This document shows positions 5,010 to 43,583 of a stretch of DNA of 43,583 nucleotides, in pieces. The notes under the pieces were generated by a model. That model was given only the letters and a program-made list of their open reading frames with translations. It ran no database searches and was not told the DNA's origin. Numbering within the stretch: position 1 is the first letter of the stretch; each line of letters begins with the position of its first letter. Source of the stretch: a virus (taxonomy: Duplodnaviria; Caudoviricetes). Made by a program: the position numbers and the translations under genes. The stretch is taken from the IMG/VR virus record IMGVR_UViG_3300045519_000021, positions 1 to 43,583 of that record; one strand, written 5' to 3'.

Positions 5010-5888
5010 ATGACCGCCATCACTCCCGAATTCGACCTGCCCGACAACATCGTCGACAGCAGCATCGCGACTCTCGTCGAGCTCGCACGCATCGCCGCCG
5101 ACCCGGTCCAGCTCACCCCTGACGCGGAGTTCCTCGTCGCGAACCCCGACGGCACACACGAACGATTCCGCACCGAAGCGCTGCCGCTCCGCAGCCCCCG
5201 CCTCAAGGCTTCCCGCCTCCTCGAGGACCTCGACACGTTCATCAGCTTCCTCGAGCGTCACGAGTCGGAGTTCACCGAGGTGTACGCATCGAAGCAGAGT
5301 CTGCGTTTCCACGCCGTCATCGACGGTGCCGCGTCCAACATGGAGGCAGAAGACGAGCGGTTCGGTCGCGAGGCGTTTAACGCCGTGTTCTCGCTGCGCG
5401 CCACCGAGTCTTGGAAGGCATGGACTGGCATCTCGGGCAAGTTCCTCGCCCAGTCTGAGTTCGCCGAGTTCATCGAGGACTGGGCCGACGACGTGCACGC
5501 ACCGGACTCGGCGACGGTCCTCGAGATCGCGCAGTCGCTCCAGGCCTCATCCGGTGTTGAGTTCTCGTCGTCGCGACGGCTCGACTCGGGTGAGGTCCAG
5601 TTCGGCTACACCGAGACGATCAAGGCCCGTGCCGGCCAGCGCGGCGACCTCACGATCCCGAAGGAGCTGACGCTCGCGCTGCAGCCCTTCGAGGGCGTGA
5701 ATGAGCTCCAGGGCAAGGTCACGCGCGTGCCGGTCACGGCTCGGTTCCGCTACCGCATCAACGACGGTGACCTCCGCCTCGGTGTGAAGCTGATCGGCCT
5801 CGACCGCATCATCGAAACGTTCTGGGCAAAGATCGTCGAGGAAGTGCGTTCGCGCGCGACGTCGCCCGTTTTCATCGGCCTCCCGTAG
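5010..5888 (+). CDS. DUF2303 / YfdQ family protein
   Basis: WKAW...QSEFAEFIEDW, LDSGEVQFGYTE, ARFRYRI motifs. Confidence 0.82.
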   Translation: MTAITPEFDLPDNIVDSSIATLVELARIAADPVQLTPDAEFLVANPDGTHERFRTEALPLRSPRLKASRLLEDLDTFISFLERHESEFTEVYASKQSLRFHAVIDGAASNMEAEDERFGREAFNAVFSLRATESWKAWTGISGKFLAQSEFAEFIEDWADDVHAPDSATVLEIAQSLQASSGVEFSSSRRLDSGEVQFGYTETIKARAGQRGDLTIPKELTLALQPFEGVNELQGKVTRVPVTARFRYRINDGDLRLGVKLIGLDRIIETFWAKIVEEVRSRATSPVFIGLP

Positions 5889-31827: not shown

Positions 31828-34758
31828 GTGGTGCGGAAATACCGTGTGCGTCCGACGCTCGCGTCGATACTCTCCGGCGTGCAGGCCTCGAGCCTGCAGG
31901 GTCTCGGCCGCGCGACGACGTCGCTCGAGGTGCAGAGCCCGCACGACGCGCCCGAGGGCATCTCCGATATCCCATCCCGCAACCTCCTCGAGGACCTCGA
32001 CACGCTCGACGAGGAACTCGACGCCGCCCGGCAGCGACTCACCGACGCTGAGGAGGCGCTCGAGACATCCACCGGCGACTTCACTGAGCAATTCGAGGCA
32101 CACGAGACCGCGATCGCCGCGGCGCAGGAGCGGCTCGACGCGGCGGAGCAGGAACTCACCGACCTCGACACCGACATCACTGCCGCAGCCACCGCCGCGA
32201 CGAACGCATGGAACGCCGCGCAGACCGCAACGAACACCGCCAATACCGCGAAGGACGACGCTGACGCCGCCGGGGCGAGTGCTCTCGAGGCACTCAACAA
32301 GGCGAACGACGCTTCGGATCGCGCGTCGACCGCTGACGGCCGCTACACCGTTGCCACGGCGAACCCGACCACGGCCGACGCGATCGGTAAGCCGCTCGGC
32401 GCGGTGTGGGAAGTCCGCTCGGGCAGCATTACGCAGCGGCGCTACGTCCTCACCGGCGCGACAACGTGGACCCAGGTCAAGGTCGGCCAAGACTTCATCG
32501 GTGACAAAGCCATCGGGCGCGCACAGATGGGTGACGCCGCCATCGGCACCGCGCAGATCGGTGACCTCGCGGTCACGAACGGCAAGATCGGCGACCTCGA
32601 CGTCGGCAAACTCACCGCATCCGGAACCTCGAAGTTCCAGGCCGCAGTGATATCGACGCTGCTCGCCGACGACGCGTTCCTCACCCGGCTCTACGCCGAA
32701 CGCGTCGTCATCGCCGCGCAGCCCGTGAACCTCATCGACAACGGCGCCGGCGAGCTCGGCTCTAAGGGCGGCTGGGCGGCGCACCCCTCGCTCACATGGC
32801 AGACGACCGACGTCGCCGCCGGCGAGGCCGGCGCGTTCACCACGGCTGCCGGCATGGGCAGCATGGCCACCACCGACACCCTCAAGCCCGTCGACGGTGG
32901 CCAGCTGCTGTTCGAGGTGTGGCTCAAGGCCGACAAGCCCGGCTCCCGCATCGTATTCGAGCTGCGCAACCAGGCCGCGGCGCACGGCACCGGCAGCAAC
33001 ACCGTTCTCCCCGGCGCAACGAGCGAGAACGTCTCAACCGGCTCGTACCCGCTCGTCGTCAACCCCGTGCCAACCGAGTGGACGAAGTACCAGATCGTCA
33101 TCAACCCGCTCTCGACCACGACCCACCTGCGGCTCGGAACGACGTATTTCAACCACTCCGCCGGCACGGAACGGCAAGCGGTCATCTCGGTCGCCGGGCT
33201 GCGTCTGCGGCCTCGCACGCAGGGCGAGCTCATCGTCGATGGCTCGATCAAGGCTCGCCACGTCGCCGCGCAGGAAGTCGCGGCCGCGGTCGGTGTTTTC
33301 GTTGACGCGATGATGACGAACCTCACCTCGACCGGTGTCGCGAACCTCAACGTCGCGGCAATCAACCAGGTGTGGGCGCGTCTCGCGGTCGTCGACCGGC
33401 TCCAAGCGCTGACGTCGATCATCACGCGCGACATGCTCGCGACCGGCTCCGTCACCGCCGAGAAGATCACCGCCTCGCAAGCGTTCTTCGACAAGCTCGT
33501 CACCTCCGAGTTCGCCGCCGGCAAGCTCGGCGTCGAAATGTTCCAGCTCGGCGAAAACGCCCGCTGGACGGAACAGGGCCTCGTCTTCTACGCGCCGGTC
33601 GTGCCCGGCCAACAGGTCGACGACTGGGCCAACCGACAGCCGATCATCGTCATCAGCCCGAACGGCGACGTCTCCATCGCCGTCGCACAGGACGGTGAAG
33701 TCACGGCCGGCATGCAGTCGACCGGTGACGTGTGGGGCGGGTTCGGCAGCTTCGACGAGCTCGAGGTCGGCGGCGTTCCGTTCATCGACCACCAGGGCCC
33801 TCGTGGCCCGATGTCGGCCGTCACACTCTCTGAAAACACGACGCTCTCGACGACCGAACGCATCCTGATTCGAGACAAGTTCTCACCGCTGCCCGACCGG
33901 CTCTACCGGTTCACGGCGCGGTTGTCGCTCGGCGGCAACAACGCCGGCTACTTCGGCATCAAGTCGTCGGGGTCGACGGTCTCGATGAACAACACGAGCG
34001 TGGTCAACGAAGGTTTTGGCGCGACCGGGTCGGATACCGAAGGAAAGCTGCTCATCGCCTACGTGCCGGGCTCCTATTTCACCCCGAACGCGGACGGCGA
34101 GACAGAGATCGGCTACACGGGTCGCGTCAAGTCGGGCACGACACCGCTCTACGCAGGGTCGGGCACCACCGACGCACTCAGTGGCACCTACTTCCTCATC
34201 GAGGACGCTGGCCCGGACATCCCATTCGACGTCGCAACCGCGACGACGCCCGCGAACACCACGCCGGCGCCACCGACGAAGAAGCAATACACCAAGACGT
34301 ACACCGCCAGCGGCGTGCGCGGCTACCGGGCCTCCGGCTCGCAAGCAGGTGACCCGCGCATCCTCATCGCTGGTTCCGCGTTCGGTGCAGCGATGTCGGA
34401 GCGGCTCGTGTTCTCGATGCCGGACGCGTTCTACTCCGACCTGCAGGGCGCGACGATCAAGTCGGCAAAGATCACGGTTCGGTGCACGCAGGTCTACTCC
34501 TCGAAGACGAACATCTCGTTCTACGTCGGAGTGACACCGACGAACGGGCTGCCCGCGACGATGCCGTCGTTCACGAACACGAACGAAGGTGCGATCACAA
34601 ACGGTCAGACGAAGACCTACACGGTACCGTCGGGCTATTTCGCGGCTATCATCTCGGCACGTGGCCTCACCGTCACGCCGAAATACGCGGGCTCGCTCTC
34701 GTCCTACGGCTATTTCGATAAGGGCGCGACGAAGATCACCGTCACCTACACGAAGTAA
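31828..34758 (+). CDS. Tail fibre / central host-recognition protein
   Basis: Coiled coil, AIGxAQ repeats, CBM-like NLIDNG domain, LIVDGSI and ITAEKI motifs, beta-rich C-terminus ending KITVTY. Confidence 0.82.
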   Translation: MVRKYRVRPTLASILSGVQASSLQGLGRATTSLEVQSPHDAPEGISDIPSRNLLEDLDTLDEELDAARQRLTDAEEALETSTGDFTEQFEAHETAIAAAQERLDAAEQELTDLDTDITAAATAATNAWNAAQTATNTANTAKDDADAAGASALEALNKANDASDRASTADGRYTVATANPTTADAIGKPLGAVWEVRSGSITQRRYVLTGATTWTQVKVGQDFIGDKAIGRAQMGDAAIGTAQIGDLAVTNGKIGDLDVGKLTASGTSKFQAAVISTLLADDAFLTRLYAERVVIAAQPVNLIDNGAGELGSKGGWAAHPSLTWQTTDVAAGEAGAFTTAAGMGSMATTDTLKPVDGGQLLFEVWLKADKPGSRIVFELRNQAAAHGTGSNTVLPGATSENVSTGSYPLVVNPVPTEWTKYQIVINPLSTTTHLRLGTTYFNHSAGTERQAVISVAGLRLRPRTQGELIVDGSIKARHVAAQEVAAAVGVFVDAMMTNLTSTGVANLNVAAINQVWARLAVVDRLQALTSIITRDMLATGSVTAEKITASQAFFDKLVTSEFAAGKLGVEMFQLGENARWTEQGLVFYAPVVPGQQVDDWANRQPIIVISPNGDVSIAVAQDGEVTAGMQSTGDVWGGFGSFDELEVGGVPFIDHQGPRGPMSAVTLSENTTLSTTERILIRDKFSPLPDRLYRFTARLSLGGNNAGYFGIKSSGSTVSMNNTSVVNEGFGATGSDTEGKLLIAYVPGSYFTPNADGETEIGYTGRVKSGTTPLYAGSGTTDALSGTYFLIEDAGPDIPFDVATATTPANTTPAPPTKKQYTKTYTASGVRGYRASGSQAGDPRILIAGSAFGAAMSERLVFSMPDAFYSDLQGATIKSAKITVRCTQVYSSKTNISFYVGVTPTNGLPATMPSFTNTNEGAITNGQTKTYTVPSGYFAAIISARGLTVTPKYAGSLSSYGYFDKGATKITVTYTK

Positions 34759-34766
34759 TCGATCGC

Positions 34767-34808
34767 AACGACGAATGCGCCCACCAGCTGGGCGCATTCG
34801 TCGTTTCA
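34767..34808 (+). terminator. 17-bp perfect hairpin between tail and lysis modules
   Basis: AACGACGAATGCGCCCA-CCAGC-TGGGCGCATTCGTCGTT. Confidence 0.65.
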
Positions 34809-34821
34809 CAAAGGAATCACA

Positions 34822-35625
34822 ATGAGTTTCAGCGTCGATAAAGTCATCGATCAAATGAACCGAGGCCGACCGTATTTCAATTGGAATCAGGAATGTGAAC
34901 GCCTAATTTGGTATGGCATCTGGGCGCACACCGGCAGCCAGGCACATCGCTCCTACTCCTCGGCGACGCTCGACTACCGCGCCTCCCGCATCGACGGCAC
35001 CGACCCGTACGCCGCCCCGCGCGGCGCCGTGCACTTCTGGGAGTGGTACCCCGACGGGCACGTCGGCTGGTCGCTCGGCAACGGGCTCATTTTCATGACC
35101 GGCGACTCGAAGGCCGTGTCGCGCCGTCTCGACCGGGGCGGGTCGATCAACTACGGCACCGTCGATTTCAACGATTACCAGCGCCGCAAGGGGCACAAGT
35201 ACCTCGGCTGGACCCGCTCCGCCGGCGGGCGACCCTCGCTCGTCTCGAAAACCTCGGGCACCTCGCCCGCAAAACCCACTCCAAAGGAGGATGACGTGGT
35301 CACGAAGGCAGAGATCGCAAGCATCGCCGAGGCCGCGGCCGCGGCCGTCTGGCGCTACGAAATGGAGGGCGGGAAGAAACTCCCGACCGGTGGGCAGATT
35401 CCCACCGAGACGGCAGGTGAGCGACTTCGCCAGGCCCGGCGCTCCACGAACGGGCTCATGGGTCGCACCCTCGACACCCAGGCCGAGATCAAGGCCCTGC
35501 GAGCCGCCGTCGAGACGCTCGCGAAAGCGAACGGGCTCGACCAGGACGCCGTCCTGAAACGCATCGACGGAGCGCTCAAGGACGCGCTCGCCGGCCTCGA
35601 AATCACACTCACCACGAGCGACTAG
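34822..35625 (+). CDS. Endolysin, Cys/His (NlpC/P60- or CHAP-like) peptidase
   Basis: ECER...APRGAVHFW...GHVGWSLGNG...YLGW; Pro/Lys linker; upstream of membrane genes. Confidence 0.78.
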   Translation: MSFSVDKVIDQMNRGRPYFNWNQECERLIWYGIWAHTGSQAHRSYSSATLDYRASRIDGTDPYAAPRGAVHFWEWYPDGHVGWSLGNGLIFMTGDSKAVSRRLDRGGSINYGTVDFNDYQRRKGHKYLGWTRSAGGRPSLVSKTSGTSPAKPTPKEDDVVTKAEIASIAEAAAAAVWRYEMEGGKKLPTGGQIPTETAGERLRQARRSTNGLMGRTLDTQAEIKALRAAVETLAKANGLDQDAVLKRIDGALKDALAGLEITLTTSD

Positions 35626-35634
35626 GGGCCGATC

Positions 35635-36057
35635 ATGCGGCAATTTCTCGTCCGTGTGTTCCTCGACCCGCCCCGGCACCGACCCGTCGGCCTCGTCGGC
35701 TACATCGTCGCCGTCATCATGGGCATCGCTTGTCTCACCGTGCCACCGCGCACGATCGAGAACGAACTCGGCACCGCGCTGACGTTCGTGTGGGGCCTCA
35801 TCATGCTCATCGGCGGGCTCGGCGGCTGCCTCACCGTCTACTCGCGGTGGTGGTGGGCCGAACGAGCGTCGATCCTCCTGCTCATGACCGGCCTGATGAT
35901 CTATCTCACGCAAGTCGTCTGGCTCATCATCACCGCCGAAGGCAATCGCGTTCCGCAGCTGTGCAGTCTCATTTTTGCCGAGCTGTTCTTCCTCTCTCGC
36001 ATCCTCAATATCCGAGGGTGGGATTATCGCCCGCCAATTCTCGATGACCGGGGGTAG
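35635..36057 (+). CDS. Four-TM membrane protein (lysis module)
   Basis: Four hydrophobic segments. Confidence 0.72.
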   Translation: MRQFLVRVFLDPPRHRPVGLVGYIVAVIMGIACLTVPPRTIENELGTALTFVWGLIMLIGGLGGCLTVYSRWWWAERASILLLMTGLMIYLTQVVWLIITAEGNRVPQLCSLIFAELFFLSRILNIRGWDYRPPILDDRG

Positions 36058-36062
36058 CGCCG

Positions 36063-36353
36063 ATGACTCCGGAGCAGCTGACCGGGCTTGGGATTGCGCT
36101 CTTCTCTAGTGGCGGAGTCGGCCTCTACATCGTGCAGAAGCTGCTCGACCGGCGAGGCAAGAAGCATACCGACGAGCAGAAGGCGTGGCGGCTCGTGCGA
36201 AAGATTCGAAATGACCTATTCGCAATGGAAGACGCATACAACGAACTCCGGCGAATTGCCGTCAATGCACCGTGCATTGACACCGACGAACTCCCGCGGC
36301 GCCCAGTTATTGGCGGCACCGGGGCAATCGAAACTCAAGGAGATTCCAAATGA
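36063..36353 (+). CDS. Single-TM membrane protein (lysis module)
   Basis: N-terminal TM segment, then basic/coiled region. Confidence 0.68.
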   Translation: MTPEQLTGLGIALFSSGGVGLYIVQKLLDRRGKKHTDEQKAWRLVRKIRNDLFAMEDAYNELRRIAVNAPCIDTDELPRRPVIGGTGAIETQGDSK

Positions 36354-36664
36354 TCGAATTCACCCTGCCACCGTCGCTCGTCATCTCGCTCGTCGTCGCC
36401 GTCGTCCTGCCGGCACTCGTTGGCCTCGTCACTACTCGCGTCACCTCGGGCGCGTTCAAGGGCATCCTGCTCGCTGTGCTCTCGCTGGCGACTGGTGTCC
36501 TCACCGAGCTTGGTGCGGCACTCGCCACGGGCGAGGCATACGACATCGGAGTCGGCGTCCTGAACGCCCTTCTCGCGCTCGGCGTCGCGCAAGGCAGCTA
36601 CGCCTCGATGTGGAAGCCCACCGGCGCGAGCGAGCAGCTGCAGCGCATCGGCAACGACAAATAG
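36350..36664 (+). CDS. Holin
   Basis: VLPALVGLVT...KGILLAVLS...WKPTG; 2-3 TM segments. Confidence 0.78.
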   Translation: MIEFTLPPSLVISLVVAVVLPALVGLVTTRVTSGAFKGILLAVLSLATGVLTELGAALATGEAYDIGVGVLNALLALGVAQGSYASMWKPTGASEQLQRIGNDK

Positions 36665-36679
36665 CGACGGAGGCGACCG

Positions 36680-37237
36680 GTGTCGATTCCTGCCCCTACT
36701 GACCTCGCGTACGGCCTCGTCGTCGGACGCGTCATCCGTTCCGTCGCCGACGGCGATGACGAGGACGACTACCCCGACACGCTCGCGCCGCGCGGCACTG
36801 GAGTGTTCACGCCGGTCGCCACGCTCGACCGCACAGAGCAATACTCCGCGCTCGTCGTGAAGGAAGAGATCCCGTTCGGTTTCGACTCGAACGGGAACAT
36901 ATGCCTCCTCAACGTGGACGACACTCCCCGGCCCCCGGGTGTGTGGCTCACCACCGGCGTTTGGCGTGCGCGGTTCAACCTCGTCGCCGCCGCGATCCCC
37001 GAGTTCCGGTTCGAGGTCACCGCGGCGCACACCTCGGAGGCGCCGCTCGACCTCGTTCACGCCGCACCACCGACGCCGGGGGAGGGCGTCACGATCGTCA
37101 CCGTCAACGTGCCGGCGGGCGGCTGGGCCGGCGCCGTGCTCGGCTACGAAAACGGCGGCATCGCGTGGGTCCAGCCCGAGAGCGCACTCGACGAGACCGC
37201 CATCCTCAACGCCTACACAGGAGCGCGAAATGGGTGA
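36680..37237 (+). CDS. Minor tail protein, probable fibre base/attachment domain
   Basis: YGLVVGRVIRSVADGDDEDDYPD...GVFTP...GVWL...PLDL, an N-terminal pattern of actinophage fibre proteins; GGAGG RBS. Confidence 0.68.
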   Translation: MSIPAPTDLAYGLVVGRVIRSVADGDDEDDYPDTLAPRGTGVFTPVATLDRTEQYSALVVKEEIPFGFDSNGNICLLNVDDTPRPPGVWLTTGVWRARFNLVAAAIPEFRFEVTAAHTSEAPLDLVHAAPPTPGEGVTIVTVNVPAGGWAGAVLGYENGGIAWVQPESALDETAILNAYTGARNG

Positions 37238-37613
37238 CCTGCAAACCTTCGCAGTACTCGTCGCCGAGGACATCAACGCAGTCGAATACCGGCTGACCGC
37301 CGCCGAGGGCCGACTGGACACCGCGCTTGTTGCGGAAGACCTCGCCCCGCTCGAGGGGCGAGTCACCGCTGCCGAGGGCCGACTCACCGCAGCTGAGGGC
37401 CGACTCGACGCCACGCTCGACGCCGACGACCTGGCCCCGCTCGAGGGACGTATGTCGTCGGCAGAGACGCGGCTCACCAGCGTCGAGGCGTCGCAGGGCG
37501 GCACATCGCTCGCCAACGCGAAATTCGGCGAGGGCGCACCAGTCGGCGGCGCACCGGTCGGGTTCTGGCACTACGACGTGCTCACCGGCGACATCTACCG
37601 AATGGAGGCCTAA
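37230..37613 (+). CDS. Coiled-coil fibre stalk / adaptor, 127 aa
   Basis: AGGAG RBS + ATG 37230; LTAAEGR heptads; ends GEGAPVGGAPVGFWHYDVLTGDIYRMEA. Confidence 0.72.
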   Translation: MGDLQTFAVLVAEDINAVEYRLTAAEGRLDTALVAEDLAPLEGRVTAAEGRLTAAEGRLDATLDADDLAPLEGRMSSAETRLTSVEASQGGTSLANAKFGEGAPVGGAPVGFWHYDVLTGDIYRMEA

Positions 37614-37615
37614 CC

Positions 37616-37990
37616 ATGGCATGGATGCGACGTGATCCAGACACAGGTGTCCGCGACATCACCGGCCTCATCACCGCAGCGGTCACGTCGGGCCGGCTCC
37701 TCGTGCAGCGGAAACGCTCGCGGCTCATCGTCGTTGGTGACGACCTCGTCTTCGCTGAGGCCGGCACCAACGTGCCGCTCCCGCGCCTCGCCGACGGCTA
37801 CCGGCCACGCTGGCGACTGCGCGAGACCTGGTACCCCTCCACCGGCTACACCGCCGGCGGCACGTTCTCGGTCACACCGGCCGGCTACTCGAACATCTAC
37901 TCGGTCGTCGCTGGCCAGCCGATCTCGTTCTACGCCGAGGTCGAGGCTGCCGGCGCGTTCCCATCGAACCTCATGGGGGTGAGCGGCTGA
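37616..37990 (+). CDS. Fibre-tip-like cassette 1
   Basis: MAWMRR leader; DTGVRDIT, GRLLVQR, LADGYRP, VTPAG. Confidence 0.8.
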   Translation: MAWMRRDPDTGVRDITGLITAAVTSGRLLVQRKRSRLIVVGDDLVFAEAGTNVPLPRLADGYRPRWRLRETWYPSTGYTAGGTFSVTPAGYSNIYSVVAGQPISFYAEVEAAGAFPSNLMGVSG

Positions 37991-38322
37991 TGCCCTGGCT
38001 CAAGCGCTCCGCGACGTCGGACTGGACCGACATCACGCACCTCATCAGCCGCCCCGTTACCTCGGGGCGGCTTCTGTTTCAGCAGAAGGCTGACGGCGAT
38101 CGTGTGATCGCGTTCGACGTGCTCGTGCTCGGCGACACAACCGGCGGCAATATCGCCGTCATCCCGTCAGAACTCGGCCGCCCAGCGTTCACCGAGGCCG
38201 AGTACCTGCCGGGCGTCACGAACCGCGTCCAGATCACCAACACCGGCAACCTCCAGGCCTACGGGCTAACCATCGGCCCGATTTTCGGACGCCTCACCTA
38301 CAGCACAAAGGCGGTCGCGTAA
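37990..38322 (+). CDS. Fibre-tip-like cassette 2
   Basis: MPWLKR leader; SDWTDIT, GRLLFQ, IPSELGRP, ITNTG; TGATG coupling. Confidence 0.8.
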   Translation: MPWLKRSATSDWTDITHLISRPVTSGRLLFQQKADGDRVIAFDVLVLGDTTGGNIAVIPSELGRPAFTEAEYLPGVTNRVQITNTGNLQAYGLTIGPIFGRLTYSTKAVA

Positions 38323-38714
38323 TGGCCTGGAGCCTGAAACCACGCCGAACCGGCCTGCGCGACATCTCTGCCGAGCTCCGCGACGGCTGGGCCGGTGTGC
38401 TCACCGTCGAACGCGTCGGTGACGTCGTCTGGTTCCGCGGCCAGCTCGACGGCGCCGCCGCAACCAGCGATATCCCGTGGCTCCTGCCCTCGGGGTTCCG
38501 GCCCGGAATCATCACCTCCGGTGGCCGCTACGAGTACGGGTCGGGGCTCGCGTCCAGCGCGGGTGGTGGACCCATCTCGATGTACCGCATCAACCACTAC
38601 AACAACCGCCTGCAGCTCGTCGCCGCGAACGGGGCGCCGACGCTCATCAACATCAACCACCAGATTCGGGCGCGCGACGCGTTCCCGACGGCATACCCGG
38701 GGGTTGGGATCTGA
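38322..38714 (+). CDS. Fibre-tip-like cassette 3
   Basis: MAWSLK leader; TGLRDIS, VERVGDVVWFRG, LPSGFRP; TAATG coupling. Confidence 0.8.
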   Translation: MAWSLKPRRTGLRDISAELRDGWAGVLTVERVGDVVWFRGQLDGAAATSDIPWLLPSGFRPGIITSGGRYEYGSGLASSAGGGPISMYRINHYNNRLQLVAANGAPTLININHQIRARDAFPTAYPGVGI

Positions 38715-39082
38715 TGGCGCTTTGGCAACGCCGACACCGGCAGCTGACCGACTGGATCGACATCACCAGCCGATTCGCAGTCCTCCCCGAGAGCGGGGTG
38801 ATGCGCGTCGCGCGCGAGGGGCGCACCGTCACGCTCATGGCTGACGGGCTCGTCTTCGCCGATGATGCGCCGTTCCTCAACCTCGGCGTCATCCTCGACG
38901 AACAATTCCGGCCGCATTACTCGAACACCGACATCGGTCTCGGCCGACGGCTCGCGGCCGACCCTGGCGGGTCGATCCGCATCGACCGCACTGGCGCTGT
39001 CTACCTCTACCAGGTGAAGGCAGGCCTCGCGATCCGCGGCACCGGAACATACCGCTGCGACAACCCGATCCCGGAGGCATAG
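38714..39082 (+). CDS. Fibre-tip-like cassette 4
   Basis: True start ATG 38714 (TGATG); MALWQRR; TDWIDIT, AREGRTVTL, LDEQFRP, IDRTG. Confidence 0.8.
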   Translation: MALWQRRHRQLTDWIDITSRFAVLPESGVMRVAREGRTVTLMADGLVFADDAPFLNLGVILDEQFRPHYSNTDIGLGRRLAADPGGSIRIDRTGAVYLYQVKAGLAIRGTGTYRCDNPIPEA

Positions 39083-39084
39083 CT

Positions 39085-39471
39085 ATGTGGGCTCTGAAAA
39101 CCCGTTCCGTGCGCGACTCCGGGCTGTGGAACGTCACGTCGCTCATCGGCGCACCCGTCACCTCCGGCAACCTCTACGTGCAACGCACCGGCGAAACACT
39201 GTGGCTGCTCGCCGACGCGCTGCGCCTCGGCGAGGTTTCGGGAACGTTTGACCTGCTGCCGTCTGGCACGCTCCCGAGTGGGCTCCGCCCGAGCGGGCGC
39301 AGCTGCTGGACAAACCTGTTCAACAGCGCCGGCCAGTTACGCCGGCTCGCGGTCTCGCCGGCCGGCTGGGTGCCGCTCTATTTCGCTGCGCCAAACGACG
39401 TGCTGCATTTCACGGTGTCGGTACCGGTCTCGGGTGATTTTCCGACGAGCTACCCGGGGGTGAAGGTCTGA
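39085..39471 (+). CDS. Fibre-tip-like cassette 5
   Basis: MWALK leader; DSGLWNVT, QRTGETLWL, LPSGLRP, VSPAG. Confidence 0.8.
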   Translation: MWALKTRSVRDSGLWNVTSLIGAPVTSGNLYVQRTGETLWLLADALRLGEVSGTFDLLPSGTLPSGLRPSGRSCWTNLFNSAGQLRRLAVSPAGWVPLYFAAPNDVLHFTVSVPVSGDFPTSYPGVKV

Positions 39472-39839
39472 TGCCTTGGTCGCTACGGCGCCAGCGCGCC
39501 ACCGTGTGGATCGATCTCACGACACAGCTCCTGAACGGGTGGGTGGCAGCGAGTCTGCGCGTGAAGCGCGACGGCGACATCGTCCTCGTCGAGTCGCAAT
39601 CTCTCGACGGGTCTGCCGCGACGAGTGACAACGTCGTGCAGCTTCCCATCGGCTTCTTCATCGCACGCCGGTCGTTCGTGTTCTCGACGGGTCTTGCAGC
39701 GGCGCCCGTGCAAAACGGATTTACCAACAACGCCGGAGTCCTCGCGCTGCCACGCACGATGGCCGTCACGAACGGCTACGCCGCCGGGCTGAGCCAGTTC
39801 CCGGTGCCCGGGGTGCCATTCCCGAAGGGAGCATCATGA
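39471..39839 (+). CDS. Fibre-tip-like cassette 6
   Basis: MPWSLRR leader; VWIDLT, KRDGDIVLV, LPIGF. Confidence 0.8.
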   Translation: MPWSLRRQRATVWIDLTTQLLNGWVAASLRVKRDGDIVLVESQSLDGSAATSDNVVQLPIGFFIARRSFVFSTGLAAAPVQNGFTNNAGVLALPRTMAVTNGYAAGLSQFPVPGVPFPKGAS

Positions 39840-40174
39840 GCTGGGTAAAGCGCCGCGGCCGCGGTACGTGGGAGAACCTCACCCTCCTCGCGGGAGTGAC
39901 TGGATCAGCAGCGATTCGCCGCGACGACGACACCGTCACGTTCCTCACGAGCGGGCTCACGGTTGGGAACGCGGGCAACGTCAACATCGCAAGCCTCACA
40001 TCGAACTACCTGCCCGTGCCCGACCCCGTCGGCATGAACGGTCGCCAGGGAGTTCTCGTCACCGCATCCGGTGAGGTCCGCCTCGTGTCGGTGTTCGCTG
40101 GCAACCTCCGCATCCTCGGAGCCACCGCCGGCGCAACCTACGCCGGCACCGTCACATGGAGAGCAGGGAACTGA
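39836..40174 (+). CDS. Fibre-tip-like cassette 7
   Basis: MSWVKRR leader; TWENLT, RRDDDTVTF, LTSNYLP. Confidence 0.78.
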   Translation: MSWVKRRGRGTWENLTLLAGVTGSAAIRRDDDTVTFLTSGLTVGNAGNVNIASLTSNYLPVPDPVGMNGRQGVLVTASGEVRLVSVFAGNLRILGATAGATYAGTVTWRAGN

Positions 40175-40458
40175 TGGTCTGGGCAAAACGTCCACGAGCG
40201 GCGGTAGTACTCACGAACGAGCACCTCGACACCATCACGTCGCCCAACCGGTACGTGGTGCAGTTTGGTGCGTACGCGACCGCAGCGAACGGCTACCCGT
40301 ATGACGAGGTGCCGGGGTTCCTCGAGGTGTTGCAGTGGCGTGATGGCCAGCCGTTGCAGGTATTCATTCCCTGGGACGGCGGATACGCGGTCGTGAAGCG
40401 GAGCTGCCTGTCAGGCGTTTGGCGTCCTTGGCGCGACCTAATGGGGGTGACGATTTAA
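40174..40458 (+). CDS. Fibre-tip cassette 8, pyocin-knob-like domain
   Basis: MVWAKR leader; LDTITSPNRY...NGYP...GFLEV...Q...KR...WRPW. Confidence 0.75.
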   Translation: MVWAKRPRAAVVLTNEHLDTITSPNRYVVQFGAYATAANGYPYDEVPGFLEVLQWRDGQPLQVFIPWDGGYAVVKRSCLSGVWRPWRDLMGVTI

Positions 40459-40526
40459 TGGTCTGGCAACGCAGAATCACGCCCGGCACATACGAAACCG
40501 GGCCGATCGCGGGGGTGAAGCTGTGA
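40458..40526 (+). CDS. 22-aa leader-only mini-ORF (cassette 9; not in ORF track)
   Basis: MVWQRRITPGTYETGPIAGVKL*; TAATG coupling upstream, GTGA overlap downstream. Confidence 0.65.
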   Translation: MVWQRRITPGTYETGPIAGVKL

Positions 40527-40921
40527 CGCGTACCGATTGGCAAGTCGTCCATACGTCCGCTGCCGGCCTCGCACCGCAGGGCCCGAACGACCCGATCCAG
40601 TTTTTCCGCGTGCTGCGGGTTGACCACACCGTGATTGTCGACCTGTCGGGGCTGCGGCTCGACACGACGAAGCCAGGGCTCGCCAACCTCGGTCACCTCC
40701 CAGATTGGGCGTGCGGGGCGCCGCTGCCGCACCAATACCACTGGGTGAACGACTCCGCGACATCGCTCCACCCTTCGCTGTGCTCGCTCTACTACGGCAA
40801 AACCATCTACTGGAACCAGCAGGTCGTCAAAGGATTGCTGGCGATCACCCGACCGGAGACGCTACGCGGCGGCTTCGAATTCACCACCCTTGCGTCGTTC
40901 CCGAAGCACCTGGAGGTCTGA
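40523..40921 (+). CDS. Fibre-tip-like cassette 10 (lacks its own Trp/basic leader)
   Basis: TDWQ, LRVDHTVIVDLSGL, HLPDWA, C-terminal FP. Confidence 0.72.
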   Translation: MTRTDWQVVHTSAAGLAPQGPNDPIQFFRVLRVDHTVIVDLSGLRLDTTKPGLANLGHLPDWACGAPLPHQYHWVNDSATSLHPSLCSLYYGKTIYWNQQVVKGLLAITRPETLRGGFEFTTLASFPKHLEV

Positions 40922-40923
40922 CA

Positions 40924-41364
40924 TTGGACATCGACACGATGAGCGACAGCGAGCTCGCCGACGCGGCCGCATCCGCGCAGGCCGAACTCGAGCGCCGACA
41001 GAAACTCGCGGACGCGGCGCGCCGAACCGACGCGATGCTGCTCGACTACCTCGTCGCCGAAGGGCGCGAGAACGGCGCCGCCTGGCAGGCACCGGTCGGC
41101 ATCATCGGCGCGTACCCCCGCGGGTGGCGCGTCGAGCACGCTGGCGCCCACTACGACGCCACTCAGCTCGGTGTCACGACCGAGCCCCCGGGCGACGGCT
41201 GGGAGCCCGCCACCGGCCCGCTTGTGCCGTTCTGGCAGCCGGGCCCGTTCCAGGCCGGCGACCTCGCCCGCGACGCCGGCCGAGTCTGGCGTGCCCTCGC
41301 CGACGTCCACGGCTCCCGCCCGAGCGAGTACCCGGGCGGCTGGGAACTCGTCGAGGCTGAGTGA
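40924..41364 (+). CDS. Protein with two CBM5/12-like (chitin-binding-type) repeats
   Basis: GGAGG RBS + TTG 40924; WQAPVG..AYPRGWRVEHAG..Y..EPPGDGW and FQAGDLARDAGRVW...GW. Confidence 0.68.
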   Translation: MDIDTMSDSELADAAASAQAELERRQKLADAARRTDAMLLDYLVAEGRENGAAWQAPVGIIGAYPRGWRVEHAGAHYDATQLGVTTEPPGDGWEPATGPLVPFWQPGPFQAGDLARDAGRVWRALADVHGSRPSEYPGGWELVEAE

Positions 41365-41606
41365 GCGTCATGGCGATCGAGCTCGATGACGTTGACCGGC
41401 AGCTCCTCGATTTCGAGGCCGAGTGGCCGCTGCACGGTGGCCGCAAGGTCGACGCAATCCGGCGCGCGTTCGGCTGGACAGCGACCCGCTACTACGCCGT
41501 GCTCGGCGCGCTCATCGAGCTGCCGGCTGCCTGGCAGTACGCGCCGATGACGGTGAAGCGTGCGCTCGAGCGACGCGACGCCGCGCGAGCTTCTCGCGTC
41601 GTCTGA
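41361..41606 (+). CDS. DUF3263 family protein
   Basis: DRQLLDFEAEW...GRKVDAIRRAFG...TRYYAVL..LIE.PAA...PMTVKR. Confidence 0.8.
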   Translation: MSVMAIELDDVDRQLLDFEAEWPLHGGRKVDAIRRAFGWTATRYYAVLGALIELPAAWQYAPMTVKRALERRDAARASRVV

Positions 41607-41620
41607 ACTGCACAACGAAT

Positions 41621-41670
41621 GCCCCTCCCTCTATGCCTACGGGCGTGGAGGGAGGGGCGATTTTCGTTTT
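41621..41670 (+). terminator. Intrinsic terminator ending the late operon (between convergent genes)
   Basis: GCCCCTCCCTCTATGCC-TACG-GGCGTGGAGGGAGGGGC followed by GATTTTCGTTTT. Confidence 0.82.
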
Positions 41671-41675
41671 CCGGG

Positions 41676-41786
41676 CTAGTGGAAGTCTCCCCACTCGAGC
41701 ATCGCGTCGGGCTCGCGGTCGAGAACGCGCGCGCCGAGCGCGAGGTACCAGCCGCGCGGCAGCGGTTCAGACGGGCACCCTGTCAT
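41676..41786 (-). CDS. Possible 36-aa protein
   Basis: MTGCPSEPLPRGWYLALG...; fills the gap to the terminator. Confidence 0.35.
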   Translation of the reverse strand: MTGCPSEPLPRGWYLALGARVLDREPDAMLEWGDFH

Positions 41787-41792
41787 GAATTG

Positions 41793-41966
41793 CTAGTCCA
41801 ATATGTCGTCGGGGAAATCGGCACGAGCCTCACGTTGTTCTGCGAGGTCGGGAACCTCGAGCGGCTGCAGCACTCCGACGCACCGGTTCACGGCTTCGAG
41901 TCGGTCATCCTCGGGCACGCGCTCGAGGTGCGCGACGAGCACATCGACAGCTTCGTCGAGACTCAT
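41793..41966 (-). CDS. 57-aa acidic hypothetical protein
   Basis: MSLDEAVDVLVAHLERVP...; ATG overlaps the lipoprotein stop (TGATG). Confidence 0.55.
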   Translation of the reverse strand: MSLDEAVDVLVAHLERVPEDDRLEAVNRCVGVLQPLEVPDLAEQREARADFPDDILD

Positions 41967-42535
41967 CAGAACTCGAGCTCGTATCCGGTCGAGCCCTCCA
42001 TTGCCACCATGCCCGTGGAGCCGCCGGAGACTTTGAGGATGATCGAGCCGTGCTCGTCAGGGAACGACACGAGGAGCACGCCGCGGGTCTTCTCGCCGCC
42101 CGAGATCGTGCCCTCGAACCCCTCTTCGTCGCTGATGTCGGCGATCGAGTGCTCGATCCCGTCGCTGATGTTGTAGCCCTCGGAGTCGACGCCGAGCCAC
42201 ACGAATTGCAGCGGTTCGGCGAGGTCGGGCGTCGCGGACGCGCTCACCGTCACGAGGAAGTACGTGCGGTCCTGGTCGAACGCGAACGCCGAGTCGGACG
42301 TGTCGACTTCCGCCATGTCTTCGATCGTGAGTTCACCGACCTCGGCGTCGCCGTCGTACAGGGTGACGGGTTCGCCGAGTTCCACGAGCTGGTGCCCGCG
42401 CTCGCTGGTGGCGACGTCAGTGGCTTGCTCTTGGCCGGCGTCGGGTTCGGTGGGTGCGTCGTCGGTCTGGCTCGCGCATCCGGTGAGTCCGAGCGTGAGG
42501 AGTGCGGCGACGGCCATGAGGGGTCTAGTGGTCAT
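41966..42535 (-). CDS. Lipoprotein with Ig-like (DUF4352-like) domain
   Basis: AGGAAGG RBS + ATG 42535; signal peptide with lipobox LTGC; ISGGEKTRGVLL. Confidence 0.75.
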   Translation of the reverse strand: MTTRPLMAVAALLTLGLTGCASQTDDAPTEPDAGQEQATDVATSERGHQLVELGEPVTLYDGDAEVGELTIEDMAEVDTSDSAFAFDQDRTYFLVTVSASATPDLAEPLQFVWLGVDSEGYNISDGIEHSIADISDEEGFEGTISGGEKTRGVLLVSFPDEHGSIILKVSGGSTGMVAMEGSTGYELEF

Positions 42536-42569
42536 GACGGGAGTCCTTCCTGCGGGGTTGTTGGGGAGT

Positions 42570-43403
42570 CTATGCGGCGCGGGGAAGCGCTTGGACGACG
42601 AGTCTTGCTCGCTGCGGGTCGGGGCCGACGTACGCGCGCGTGGTGGCGGGGGAGGCGTGGCCGAGCAGGTCTTGCACGATGAGGAGGTCCTTCGATTCGC
42701 GGTGTGAGAGCACGGCGAATCGGTGCCGGCCAGTGTGCAGAGTCCATTCACCGGGCAGCACGCGGGTCGCGAGTTTCCCGACGTACTTGGCCGACAGGTG
42801 GCCACTCACTCGGCCGGGGAAGAAGTAGCCGCTTCCGAGTTTGAGCAGCGCGGCCGCGAGGTCGGTGTTCAGCGGGATGACGCGGTCTTTGCCGCCTTTG
42901 CCGTGCGCGATGATCGAGTAGCCGTCGAGGTCGGGCAGCAGGTCACGTGAGTGGGCTTGCGCGATCTCGCCGCGGCGCATGCCGGCTTCGGCCGCGAGGC
43001 GCAGAATGAGTTCGGTTCGCTGGTCGGCGGCTTCCATGCCCTCGTGCAGGTACGGCGCGGGGATGGGGCGCGGCTTCGGCGCGCTCGCCTTCACGACCGG
43101 CAGGATCGCGGCGGTGTTCTGCTCGGTGCGGCCGGTCGCAACGCCCCACGCCCAGAAATGCCGGAAAGTCGTGCGCCGGCTCCGGCGAGTCTCCTGCAGC
43201 CAATCGCGCTCGGCGAACCACCCGAGCAGCTGCTCGGGCGTCACCGTCCACGGGCTGCCGCCGAGCCCGCGCGCCAGATTCGAGAGATGCTGACGCCGCG
43301 TGTACTGTGTGGTCGCTGGCGTGCCGGCAGCAGTCTGCTCGATGAAGTAGTCGGCGAGGGGAGTCTCCCACTCGTCCGGTACAGGTGTCGGTTTCAGGGC
43401 CAT
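42570..43403 (-). CDS. int: Tyrosine integrase, short (277 aa), C-terminal ...RAA
   Basis: GMRRGE, GKGGK, LHTGRH, LGHAS, TTRAY catalytic residues; next to att; ATG 43403 preferred over 43505. Confidence 0.93.
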   Translation of the reverse strand: MALKPTPVPDEWETPLADYFIEQTAAGTPATTQYTRRQHLSNLARGLGGSPWTVTPEQLLGWFAERDWLQETRRSRRTTFRHFWAWGVATGRTEQNTAAILPVVKASAPKPRPIPAPYLHEGMEAADQRTELILRLAAEAGMRRGEIAQAHSRDLLPDLDGYSIIAHGKGGKDRVIPLNTDLAAALLKLGSGYFFPGRVSGHLSAKYVGKLATRVLPGEWTLHTGRHRFAVLSHRESKDLLIVQDLLGHASPATTRAYVGPDPQRARLVVQALPRAA

Positions 43404-43546
43404 AACCAATATATTTAGATCGTGTTTAAATGACCACGCATGCACTCGGCGTATCGAATTCCGGCGCGAATTCTGCGGAGTTCCGCATTCTCGCGCGGAA
43501 GTCATCGATGCTAACGACGTCGGCGTGCTGGTCGTAGACCCCCGTA

Positions 43547-43583
43547 CAGAAGGTTGGGGGTTCGAGTCCCTCCAGGCGCGCAG
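43547..43583 (+). repeat. att core, integrase-side junction (duplicated tRNA 3' end)
   Basis: Identical to 2585-2621 up to the window end. Confidence 0.96.

Follow-up and report, generated by a model that had tools for sequence, protein, structure and literature searches.

The virus record IMGVR_UViG_3300045519_000021 (Duplodnaviria; Caudoviricetes), analysed over its full length of 43,583 nucleotides (nt; hereafter the window), contains downstream of a holin gene a row of small, co-oriented genes that we describe here as a putative split tail-fibre system with multiple tips (Table 1). A fibre base gene, for which neither Pfam nor PHROG gave a match, and a stalk gene are followed by ten open reading frames (ORFs, named by their start positions) joined by stop/start overlaps or 2-nt gaps, in agreement with the genes and spacing described in an earlier note on this DNA. 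A purine-rich Shine-Dalgarno (SD)-like run could be read by eye upstream of each array ORF, and their GC content at third codon positions ranges from 0.76 to 0.86. The earlier note had counted ten back-to-back ORFs; ten coupled ORFs are present, of which 40174 is of a knob type, 40523 lacks the N-terminal leader of the other nine, and 40458 encodes a short remnant. A frameshift joining this remnant to 40523 was considered and rejected, as three relatives carry the leaderless head without such a remnant. The gene that follows the array (40924–41364), for which no PDB match was found, is not counted as a tip and is a possible assembly factor.

Table 1 Features of the fibre array in the window (spacing in nt before each of the ten array ORFs; RBP, receptor-binding protein; AF2, AlphaFold2)
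Feature	Position	Strand	Spacing	Evidence
Holin (context)	36350..36664	+		phrog_8269, E 1e-19
Fibre base/anchor gene, 185 aa	36680..37237	+		40% identity over 173 aa (E 1e-26) to P0175 N-terminus
Stalk, 127 aa, coiled-coil repeats and C-terminal 'socket' motif	37230..37613	+		Homolog hits ending in motif
Tip 1, leader and predicted RBP head	37616..37990	+	+2	phrog_3971 C-terminus, E 1e-5; 54% to last leader tip of L003
Tip 2, leader and predicted RBP head	37990..38322	+	-1	Alignment A1; BLAST to other tips, E 8e-9
Tip 3, leader and predicted RBP head	38322..38714	+	-1	phrog_3971, E 1e-8; phrog_6614 (minor tail), E 1e-4; 43% to tip 6 of L003
Tip 4, leader and predicted RBP head	38714..39082	+	-1	Alignment A1; 35% to L039 tip
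Tip 5, leader and predicted RBP head	39085..39471	+	+2	AF2 model, fold matches
Tip 6, leader and predicted RBP head	39471..39839	+	-1	phrog_3971, E 2e-7
Tip 7, leader and predicted RBP head	39836..40174	+	-4	71% to L015 tip
Tip 8, leader and knob-type fibre domain (not head)	40174..40458	+	-1	phrog_6614 positions 307-390, E 2.5e-5; phrog_26622 (tail fibre), E 2e-4
22-aa remnant, leader and usual C-terminal tail, without body	40458..40526	+	-1	MVWQRR start; no indel in 4 runs
Leaderless, strongly conserved predicted head	40523..40921	+	-4	61-65% to orthologs in L003, L007, L010, L015
Fibre-linked gene, start 40924 (TTG) or 40939 (ATG)	40924..41364	+		phrog_18593, E 2e-7; 55% to gene after L010 array
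Terminator-like hairpin at end of late unit	41620..41659	+		18-pair stem and T run; consensus match only

Searches for relatives of this locus yielded six further distinct arrays (L003, L007/L009, L010, L015, L039 and L048), with tip queries leading to L003, L007/L009, L010 and L039, and queries with the C-terminal stalk motif (the socket, see below) leading to L015 and L048. Array limits were set by eye, and L001, L011, L017, L049, L056 and L058 were left out as non-homologous or partial. Each further array consists of a socket-ending stalk followed directly by four to eight array genes, the stalks measuring 67–137 amino acids (aa) and the tips about 90–140 aa across arrays. Stalk and leader-bearing tips go together in all seven distinct arrays, and the related prophages with a conserved stalk and variable tip number and content that the earlier note had proposed to look for do exist. 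The L003-type array recurs in L004, L005, L006 and L008, while named carriers include two type strains, Gulosibacter faecalis ATCC 13722 (L007/L009) and Brachybacterium rhamnosum JCM 11650 (L010), in addition to genome G438 (L039); the named relatives are actinobacteria. As L003, L007 and L015 have a common tail module they are not independent; the tail modules of the window and L010 differ from it.

The array system is rare in the genome samples. The socket profile matched 1 of 401 genomes, the seed genome itself, and the tip profiles matched 6 of 401, 6 of 68, 2 of 13 and 6 of 401; arrays occurred only in G001, G002 and G438, and a row with a different leader in G290, in a first look that scored part of the candidates. 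In this latter row (L025:34–1426, at the start of contig G290:C3), at least three head genes share the start MSAPTL[QR]A without a Trp leader and are followed by a small gene similar to the window 40939 N-terminus; this row may represent a parallel plug-in system. tblastn searches of 50,697 phage records with the socket and with the leaderless head gave no match, the L010 stalk gave three weak N-terminal matches and tip 3 gave 11 partial matches to Arthrobacter phages; no cultured phage with an array was found in these searches.

The leader, M-x-W-x-[KR], stands at the start of nine of the ten window array ORFs. All nine starts quoted in the earlier note are present, although the ninth (MVWQRR) heads only the 22-aa peptide. 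A looser form of the pattern was found in 9 of 10 array genes compared with 2 of 114 SD-preceded window starts outside the array, and at 4 of 26, 5 of 76 and 1 of 33 other starts in three related loci (L009, in which the array was unmasked, was left out of this control). Over the seven arrays, the leader is present in 43 of 47 array genes (41 with Trp, 2 with Phe), and the four without it are the orthologous last head; this 40523-type head is leaderless and last in L003, L007 and L010 and leader-bearing in L015. Comparison of 36 junctions revealed conservation of only the SD, the stop, the ATG and the TGG, while synonymous codons vary; the leader is conserved as protein, not as DNA. The same leader also precedes unrelated domains, namely heads, knob-type domains (window, L015 and L039) and a third small domain (L015:9972), for which Pfam H_lectin (E 0.2) is a hint only. 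A C-terminal 'PGV/MGV' was considered separately as a docking or recombination motif and rejected as unspecific, since it overlaps the SD of the following gene and is found at the end of fused heads as well (A9 consensus).

As to the tip bodies, profile and fold comparisons predict that eight array ORFs carry a head with the fold of lactococcal receptor-binding proteins (RBPs). Five of the eight match phrog_3971 over its C-terminal part (E 1e-8 to 0.017), and four of these five also match phrog_6614 (minor tail protein); Pfam gave no names for the tips. Modelling covered one of the eight heads, 39085, for which AF2 returned a predicted local distance difference test (pLDDT) score of 95.7, with residues 1–10 reaching only 74 and being unstructured. 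This model resembles the TP901-1 RBP (Z 10.0, root-mean-square deviation (rmsd) 3.4, 107 aligned), PSA gp15 (Z 9.9) and the tail needle of the Pseudomonas phage Pa223 (Z 11.3). Against the TP901-1, p2, bIL170 and PSA heads together the values span Z 9.2–10.0, rmsd 2.4–3.6 and 97–109 aligned, and Foldseek matched the bIL170 head with E 8.5e-4. The identity as fibre or RBP parts proposed in the earlier note, which had expected RBP-head or knob folds, is thus borne out by these fold and profile matches, and by analogy with the solved look-alikes the tips are probably homotrimeric and, judged by the fold, may bind a cell-wall glycan. The fold is common to the RBPs of the lactococcal phages p2, TP901-1 and bIL170 and to Listeria PSA gp15; there, however, the head is the C-terminal domain of one longer chain, whereas here it is a separate gene. 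Fused forms also occur among closer relatives: a tip-head profile search retrieved 327 relatives at E <= 0.001 (150 listed), and among the matches listed (P0030–P0175) 84 exceed 145 aa in length and mostly carry a C-terminal head, and the leader pattern is present in 39 of the 62 short ones. The non-head tip 40174 matches an internal domain of the fused fibre P0122 (E 6e-9); the name 'pyocin knob', suggested by an Atlas lead (0.84), is a weak lead.

How the separate tips might be joined to the stalk is suggested by the fused relatives. The stalk ends in the socket motif G.P..AP.G.W..D..TGD.Y.ME-stop, which was found at the end of 32 of 34 stalk homolog hits (one of the 32 being a fragment of the window stalk). 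Just before the head, many fused relatives follow the consensus G.G.PEG.V.AP.GS.Y.D...GA..W.K.....GW.V..GDTGWR, and in the AF2 model of the fused P0077 this module is predicted to form four strands (51–54, 69–72, 79–84 and 93–99; pLDDT 92–94), the fourth of which begins at Trp93. The stalk end bears a weak resemblance to the first three strands of this module. Among 68 fused relatives with a TG-W-R anchor, 14 were flagged for the G.G.P..AP.GS..D module, and a Trp seven residues before the anchor was present in 12 of these 14 compared with 3 of the 54 others. In 37 anchor-bearing tips the leader Trp lies 6–11 residues before the anchor, with a mode of 7–8; some of these tips had been selected with the leader pattern, and that pattern sets the Trp while leaving its distance to the anchor free. 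HMMER, unaided, placed the tip profile from positions 2–3 onward on the Trp strand of fused proteins in L019, L022 and L036. These alignments suggest that the leader Trp and the fourth strand of the fused module are in register. As the base matches the N-terminus of the fused P0175 (319 aa, with the same head at its end), the locus resembles a known one-piece fibre that has been divided into base, stalk and tip, and in L041 and P0212 the stalk N-terminus is fused straight to a tip domain.

Several side observations concern related joints. P0213 (573 aa) ends in the same socket, and in L033 a similar body, lacking the socket, stands before a double head in fused form. In L010:6553–7862 and L041:284–1815, the gene preceding the stalk ends in G..P...PLGAHW....G..Y.R and the gene next after it starts M-x-Y-x-x-R-x-W, so that a second plug-and-socket tier is possible. 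The base C-terminus (D..AI..AY...RNG) and the stalk N-terminus (M.DL...A...AED.N) are conserved between otherwise unrelated upstream genes (window 37200–37260; L003:4587–4960), which suggests another non-covalent joint between base and stalk.

Because the leader Trp is in apparent register, the stalk end resembles strands 1–3 and the leader is unstructured in the lone tip, we infer docking by strand completion. The earlier note had proposed co-expressed tips that dock on one stalk through the common leader, a reading that is partly supported here. In the mechanism we propose, a siphovirus side-fibre would be split into a base, a stalk and a set of alternative tips; the stalk would trimerise, with its three C-terminal beta-strands forming an unfinished module, the socket, into which the Trp/basic leader of each tip would be inserted as the missing fourth strand. 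One late transcript would yield all tips through translational coupling, and with the tips competing for sockets a lysate, and perhaps a single virion, would show several binding specificities without a DNA switch. Over evolutionary time, recombination at the gene junctions, which resemble one another, would add, remove and exchange tips. We consider it fairly likely that co-expressed tips dock non-covalently by completing the end module of the stalk. The further-reaching version, in which a single socket is completed by a donor strand from any of as many as nine co-expressed tips with three unrelated kinds of domain, and one fixed genome gives rise to combinatorially mosaic virions, is plausible but tentative.

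A number of observations weigh against such docking or against the use of all tips. The alignment of socket and fused module by hhalign extends over 22 columns at 41% identity with E 0.005 and a probability of 7%, no solved structure covering the socket module was matched, and fold searches with the fused model gave only the head and a helix. The leader varies in length by up to five residues, Phe replaces Trp in two leaders of L048, and the best-conserved head is leaderless in four of the five arrays having it, which docking through the leader leaves unexplained. Decayed cassettes occur as well, namely the 22-aa remnant and two first tips (L048:1115–1372 and L039:1164–1475) that are short or shifted and look internally deleted or frameshifted, and in L005 (~5246–5604) the second tip has lost its start and leader through a deletion of 25 nt compared with L003, a natural or an assembly effect in a single contig. 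Another irregular tip, L048:2090–2785, carries two heads behind one leader.

The weak socket match and the persistence of the leaderless head would fit a different reading, in which the leader does not plug into the stalk and the tips sit elsewhere on tail or capsid, form chains, or serve as free lectin-like decoys or shields; the location of the window module after the lysis genes points the same way. In L003, L007, L010 and L015, on the other hand, the array lies among the tail genes before the lysis genes, the order of stalk then tips is strict in seven of seven arrays, the Trp register matches, and the socket motif is absent from the tip ends, so that we regard this reading as quite unlikely.

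Joining of the stalk to a single tip at a time by a DNA switch or by recoding, such as shufflon-like deletion by the integrase, slippage or readthrough, would be suggested by the tyrosine recombinase located ~1.2 kb from the array, since the Rin shufflon is described as running such an enzyme on similar heads (PMC6109161). This recombinase, however, abuts attR and is the sole recombinase Pfam in 56 + 21 scanned ORFs; a second recombinase was not found in this set, nor was a reverse transcriptase family in the Pfam scans of the window. No long near-identical repeat pair of the template/variable kind was detected in 36000–43583, no crossover word is common to the window junctions (longest common word 4–11 nt), and all cassettes are co-oriented in the seven arrays, each window cassette having its own SD-like run and start. 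The earlier note's statements that a shufflon invertase, a diversity-generating retroelement (DGR) and a shared recombination repeat are lacking and that the cassettes are co-oriented with their own starts therefore hold. The gaps between stalk and tip 1 in the seven arrays (+2, +3, +3, -1, +4, -1 and -1) cover all three frames, and homopolymer runs of at least six, the kind of tract that gates each gene in polyG phase-variable RBP arrays, are absent from the window, L010 and L048 arrays, with the other arrays having single or paired 6-mers only. Contigs hold no rearranged variants, although contigs drop rare variants, and those of four public runs, possibly not independent of the window DNA, contain the array without indels or substitutions. 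Beyond this, run X19 contains one joint with 21-nt sides and a loose end (window 40560–40862) reading like the last head of the L003/L007 type, hinting at a related phage or prophage in the same sample as the best explanation. Taken together, a switch of this kind appears very improbable.

A third alternative accepts docking but has one or two tips used at a time, owing to operon polarity or one better-binding leader, with the rest kept as a reservoir for slow recombination or deletion. It draws on the differences in tip order and content between relatives: orthologous tips occupy different positions (window tip 1 corresponds to the last leader tip of L003), the L015 stalk is 88% identical to that of L003 and yet precedes a largely different tip set, and between L003 and L007 two cassettes are swapped for one, the swap having its ends in a leader and a gene tail. 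Decayed cassettes also speak for it. Conversely, every tip keeps its SD, start and leader at any position, tip order is unchanged in five L003-type contigs (L008 being partial) and in four runs of the window phage, and the distal tips show signs of purifying selection, with nonsynonymous divergence (dN) of 0.26–0.52 below synonymous divergence (dS) of 1.04–1.46 in five window pairs; here dS is near saturation, and purifying selection is no proof of current use. We therefore regard the restricted use of tips as rather unlikely, and favour co-expressed tips that dock by completing the stalk module. As a separate observation, the stalks of L003 and L007 differ by a dS of 0.42 and six shared tips are nearly identical (dS 0–0.08), and thus a recent transfer of a tip block between phages seems to have taken place.

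The array belongs to a whole prophage of ~41 kb inside the window, integrated at tRNA-Arg(ACG) (2546–2619), with a second copy of the 37-nt att core at 43547–43583 and the tyrosine integrase, recognised by Pfam scan, adjoining attR. Capsid, terminase and tape measure genes were all detected in the window, an Rfam scan of which gave tRNA only, and no sigma-70-like promoter was found in 34500–42600. To the left of the attachment site lie a host LysR regulator and an MFS transporter (353–2453). The segment after the array (41361–42535) holds a DUF3263 gene (E 2.5e-21) and, on the minus strand and adjoining the integrase, a lipoprotein-like gene (phrog_806, E 5e-5). In the lysis region, a membrane gene (35635–36057) resembles by eye the one of L003/L007 (12722–13144), despite unrelated tail modules. 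The window DNA is also present in ant metagenome runs.

Comparison with known systems, as described in the accessible parts of the cited accounts, places the arrangement next to several partial parallels. In KP32, K11 and KP34, podophages of Klebsiella, a conserved N-terminal peptide of RBP2 docks on RBP1 at its T4 gp10-like branching domain (PMC13352976), and a separately encoded RBP thus joins the virion via a short portable peptide. Those phages have one RBP2 with a branching site of its own and a ~29-aa peptide on a large enzyme, whereas here four to nine small non-enzymatic tips have one leader of 6–10 aa for apparently one site, the cut end of a fibre module fused in relatives; Pfam, PHROG and PDB sequence searches with base and stalk gave no match to a T4 gp10-like branching domain. 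The T-even adhesin gp38 caps gp37 non-covalently via conserved tryptophans (phage S16, PDB 6F45; PMC6851490) and is likewise a separate tip protein on a trimeric fibre, trimer and docking being inferred in our case. It differs as one monomeric adhesin per genome, with three Trp on a helical bundle, a polyglycine head and no array, while the 39085 model contains no helix of at least four residues and has a single leader Trp.

The Rin shufflon of Bifidobacterium prophages, which has an invertase, an 11-bp rix repeat, cassettes in inverted orientation and fusion in frame (PMC6109161), likewise presents, in an actinobacterial prophage, diverged TP901-1-like RBP heads lined up after a constant N-terminal portion; in contrast, no invertase of the Rin, Min, Gin or Cin type, repeat sites, inverted cassettes or in-frame fusion were found in the array described here. 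The Campylobacter phages of the genus Fletchervirus carry several alternative RBP genes in a row, RBP1–4 (PMC10877375), without recombinase-driven fusion, but differ in host and docking, and the window array has no homopolymer tract of at least six. Actinophage fibres can be built from several small chains, and the accessible part of that account contains no such tip array (PMC13252515). The earlier note knew of no description of this arrangement. RBP docking through an N-terminal peptide is known (PMC13352976), while a row of four to nine alternative tips for one socket seems undescribed; none was found in the literature searched, which left most subscription papers and supplements outside its coverage. 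We conclude that the locus is a real, recurrent and apparently undescribed split-fibre system with multiple tips.

If this holds true, a temperate phage would present many receptor specificities at once with its DNA unchanged, its host range would not be readable from one fibre gene, and single-receptor resistance would be less effective. The parts are small and arrays are present in two named type strains, which makes the idea open to direct testing. Should virions indeed be mosaic, the system would represent a third route of diversification beside DNA inversion and DGR mutagenesis, and its leader a tag of 6–10 residues to load proteins onto a phage tail. The occurrence of fused and split forms side by side suggests how the cutting of a single small domain could give rise to a multi-tip system.

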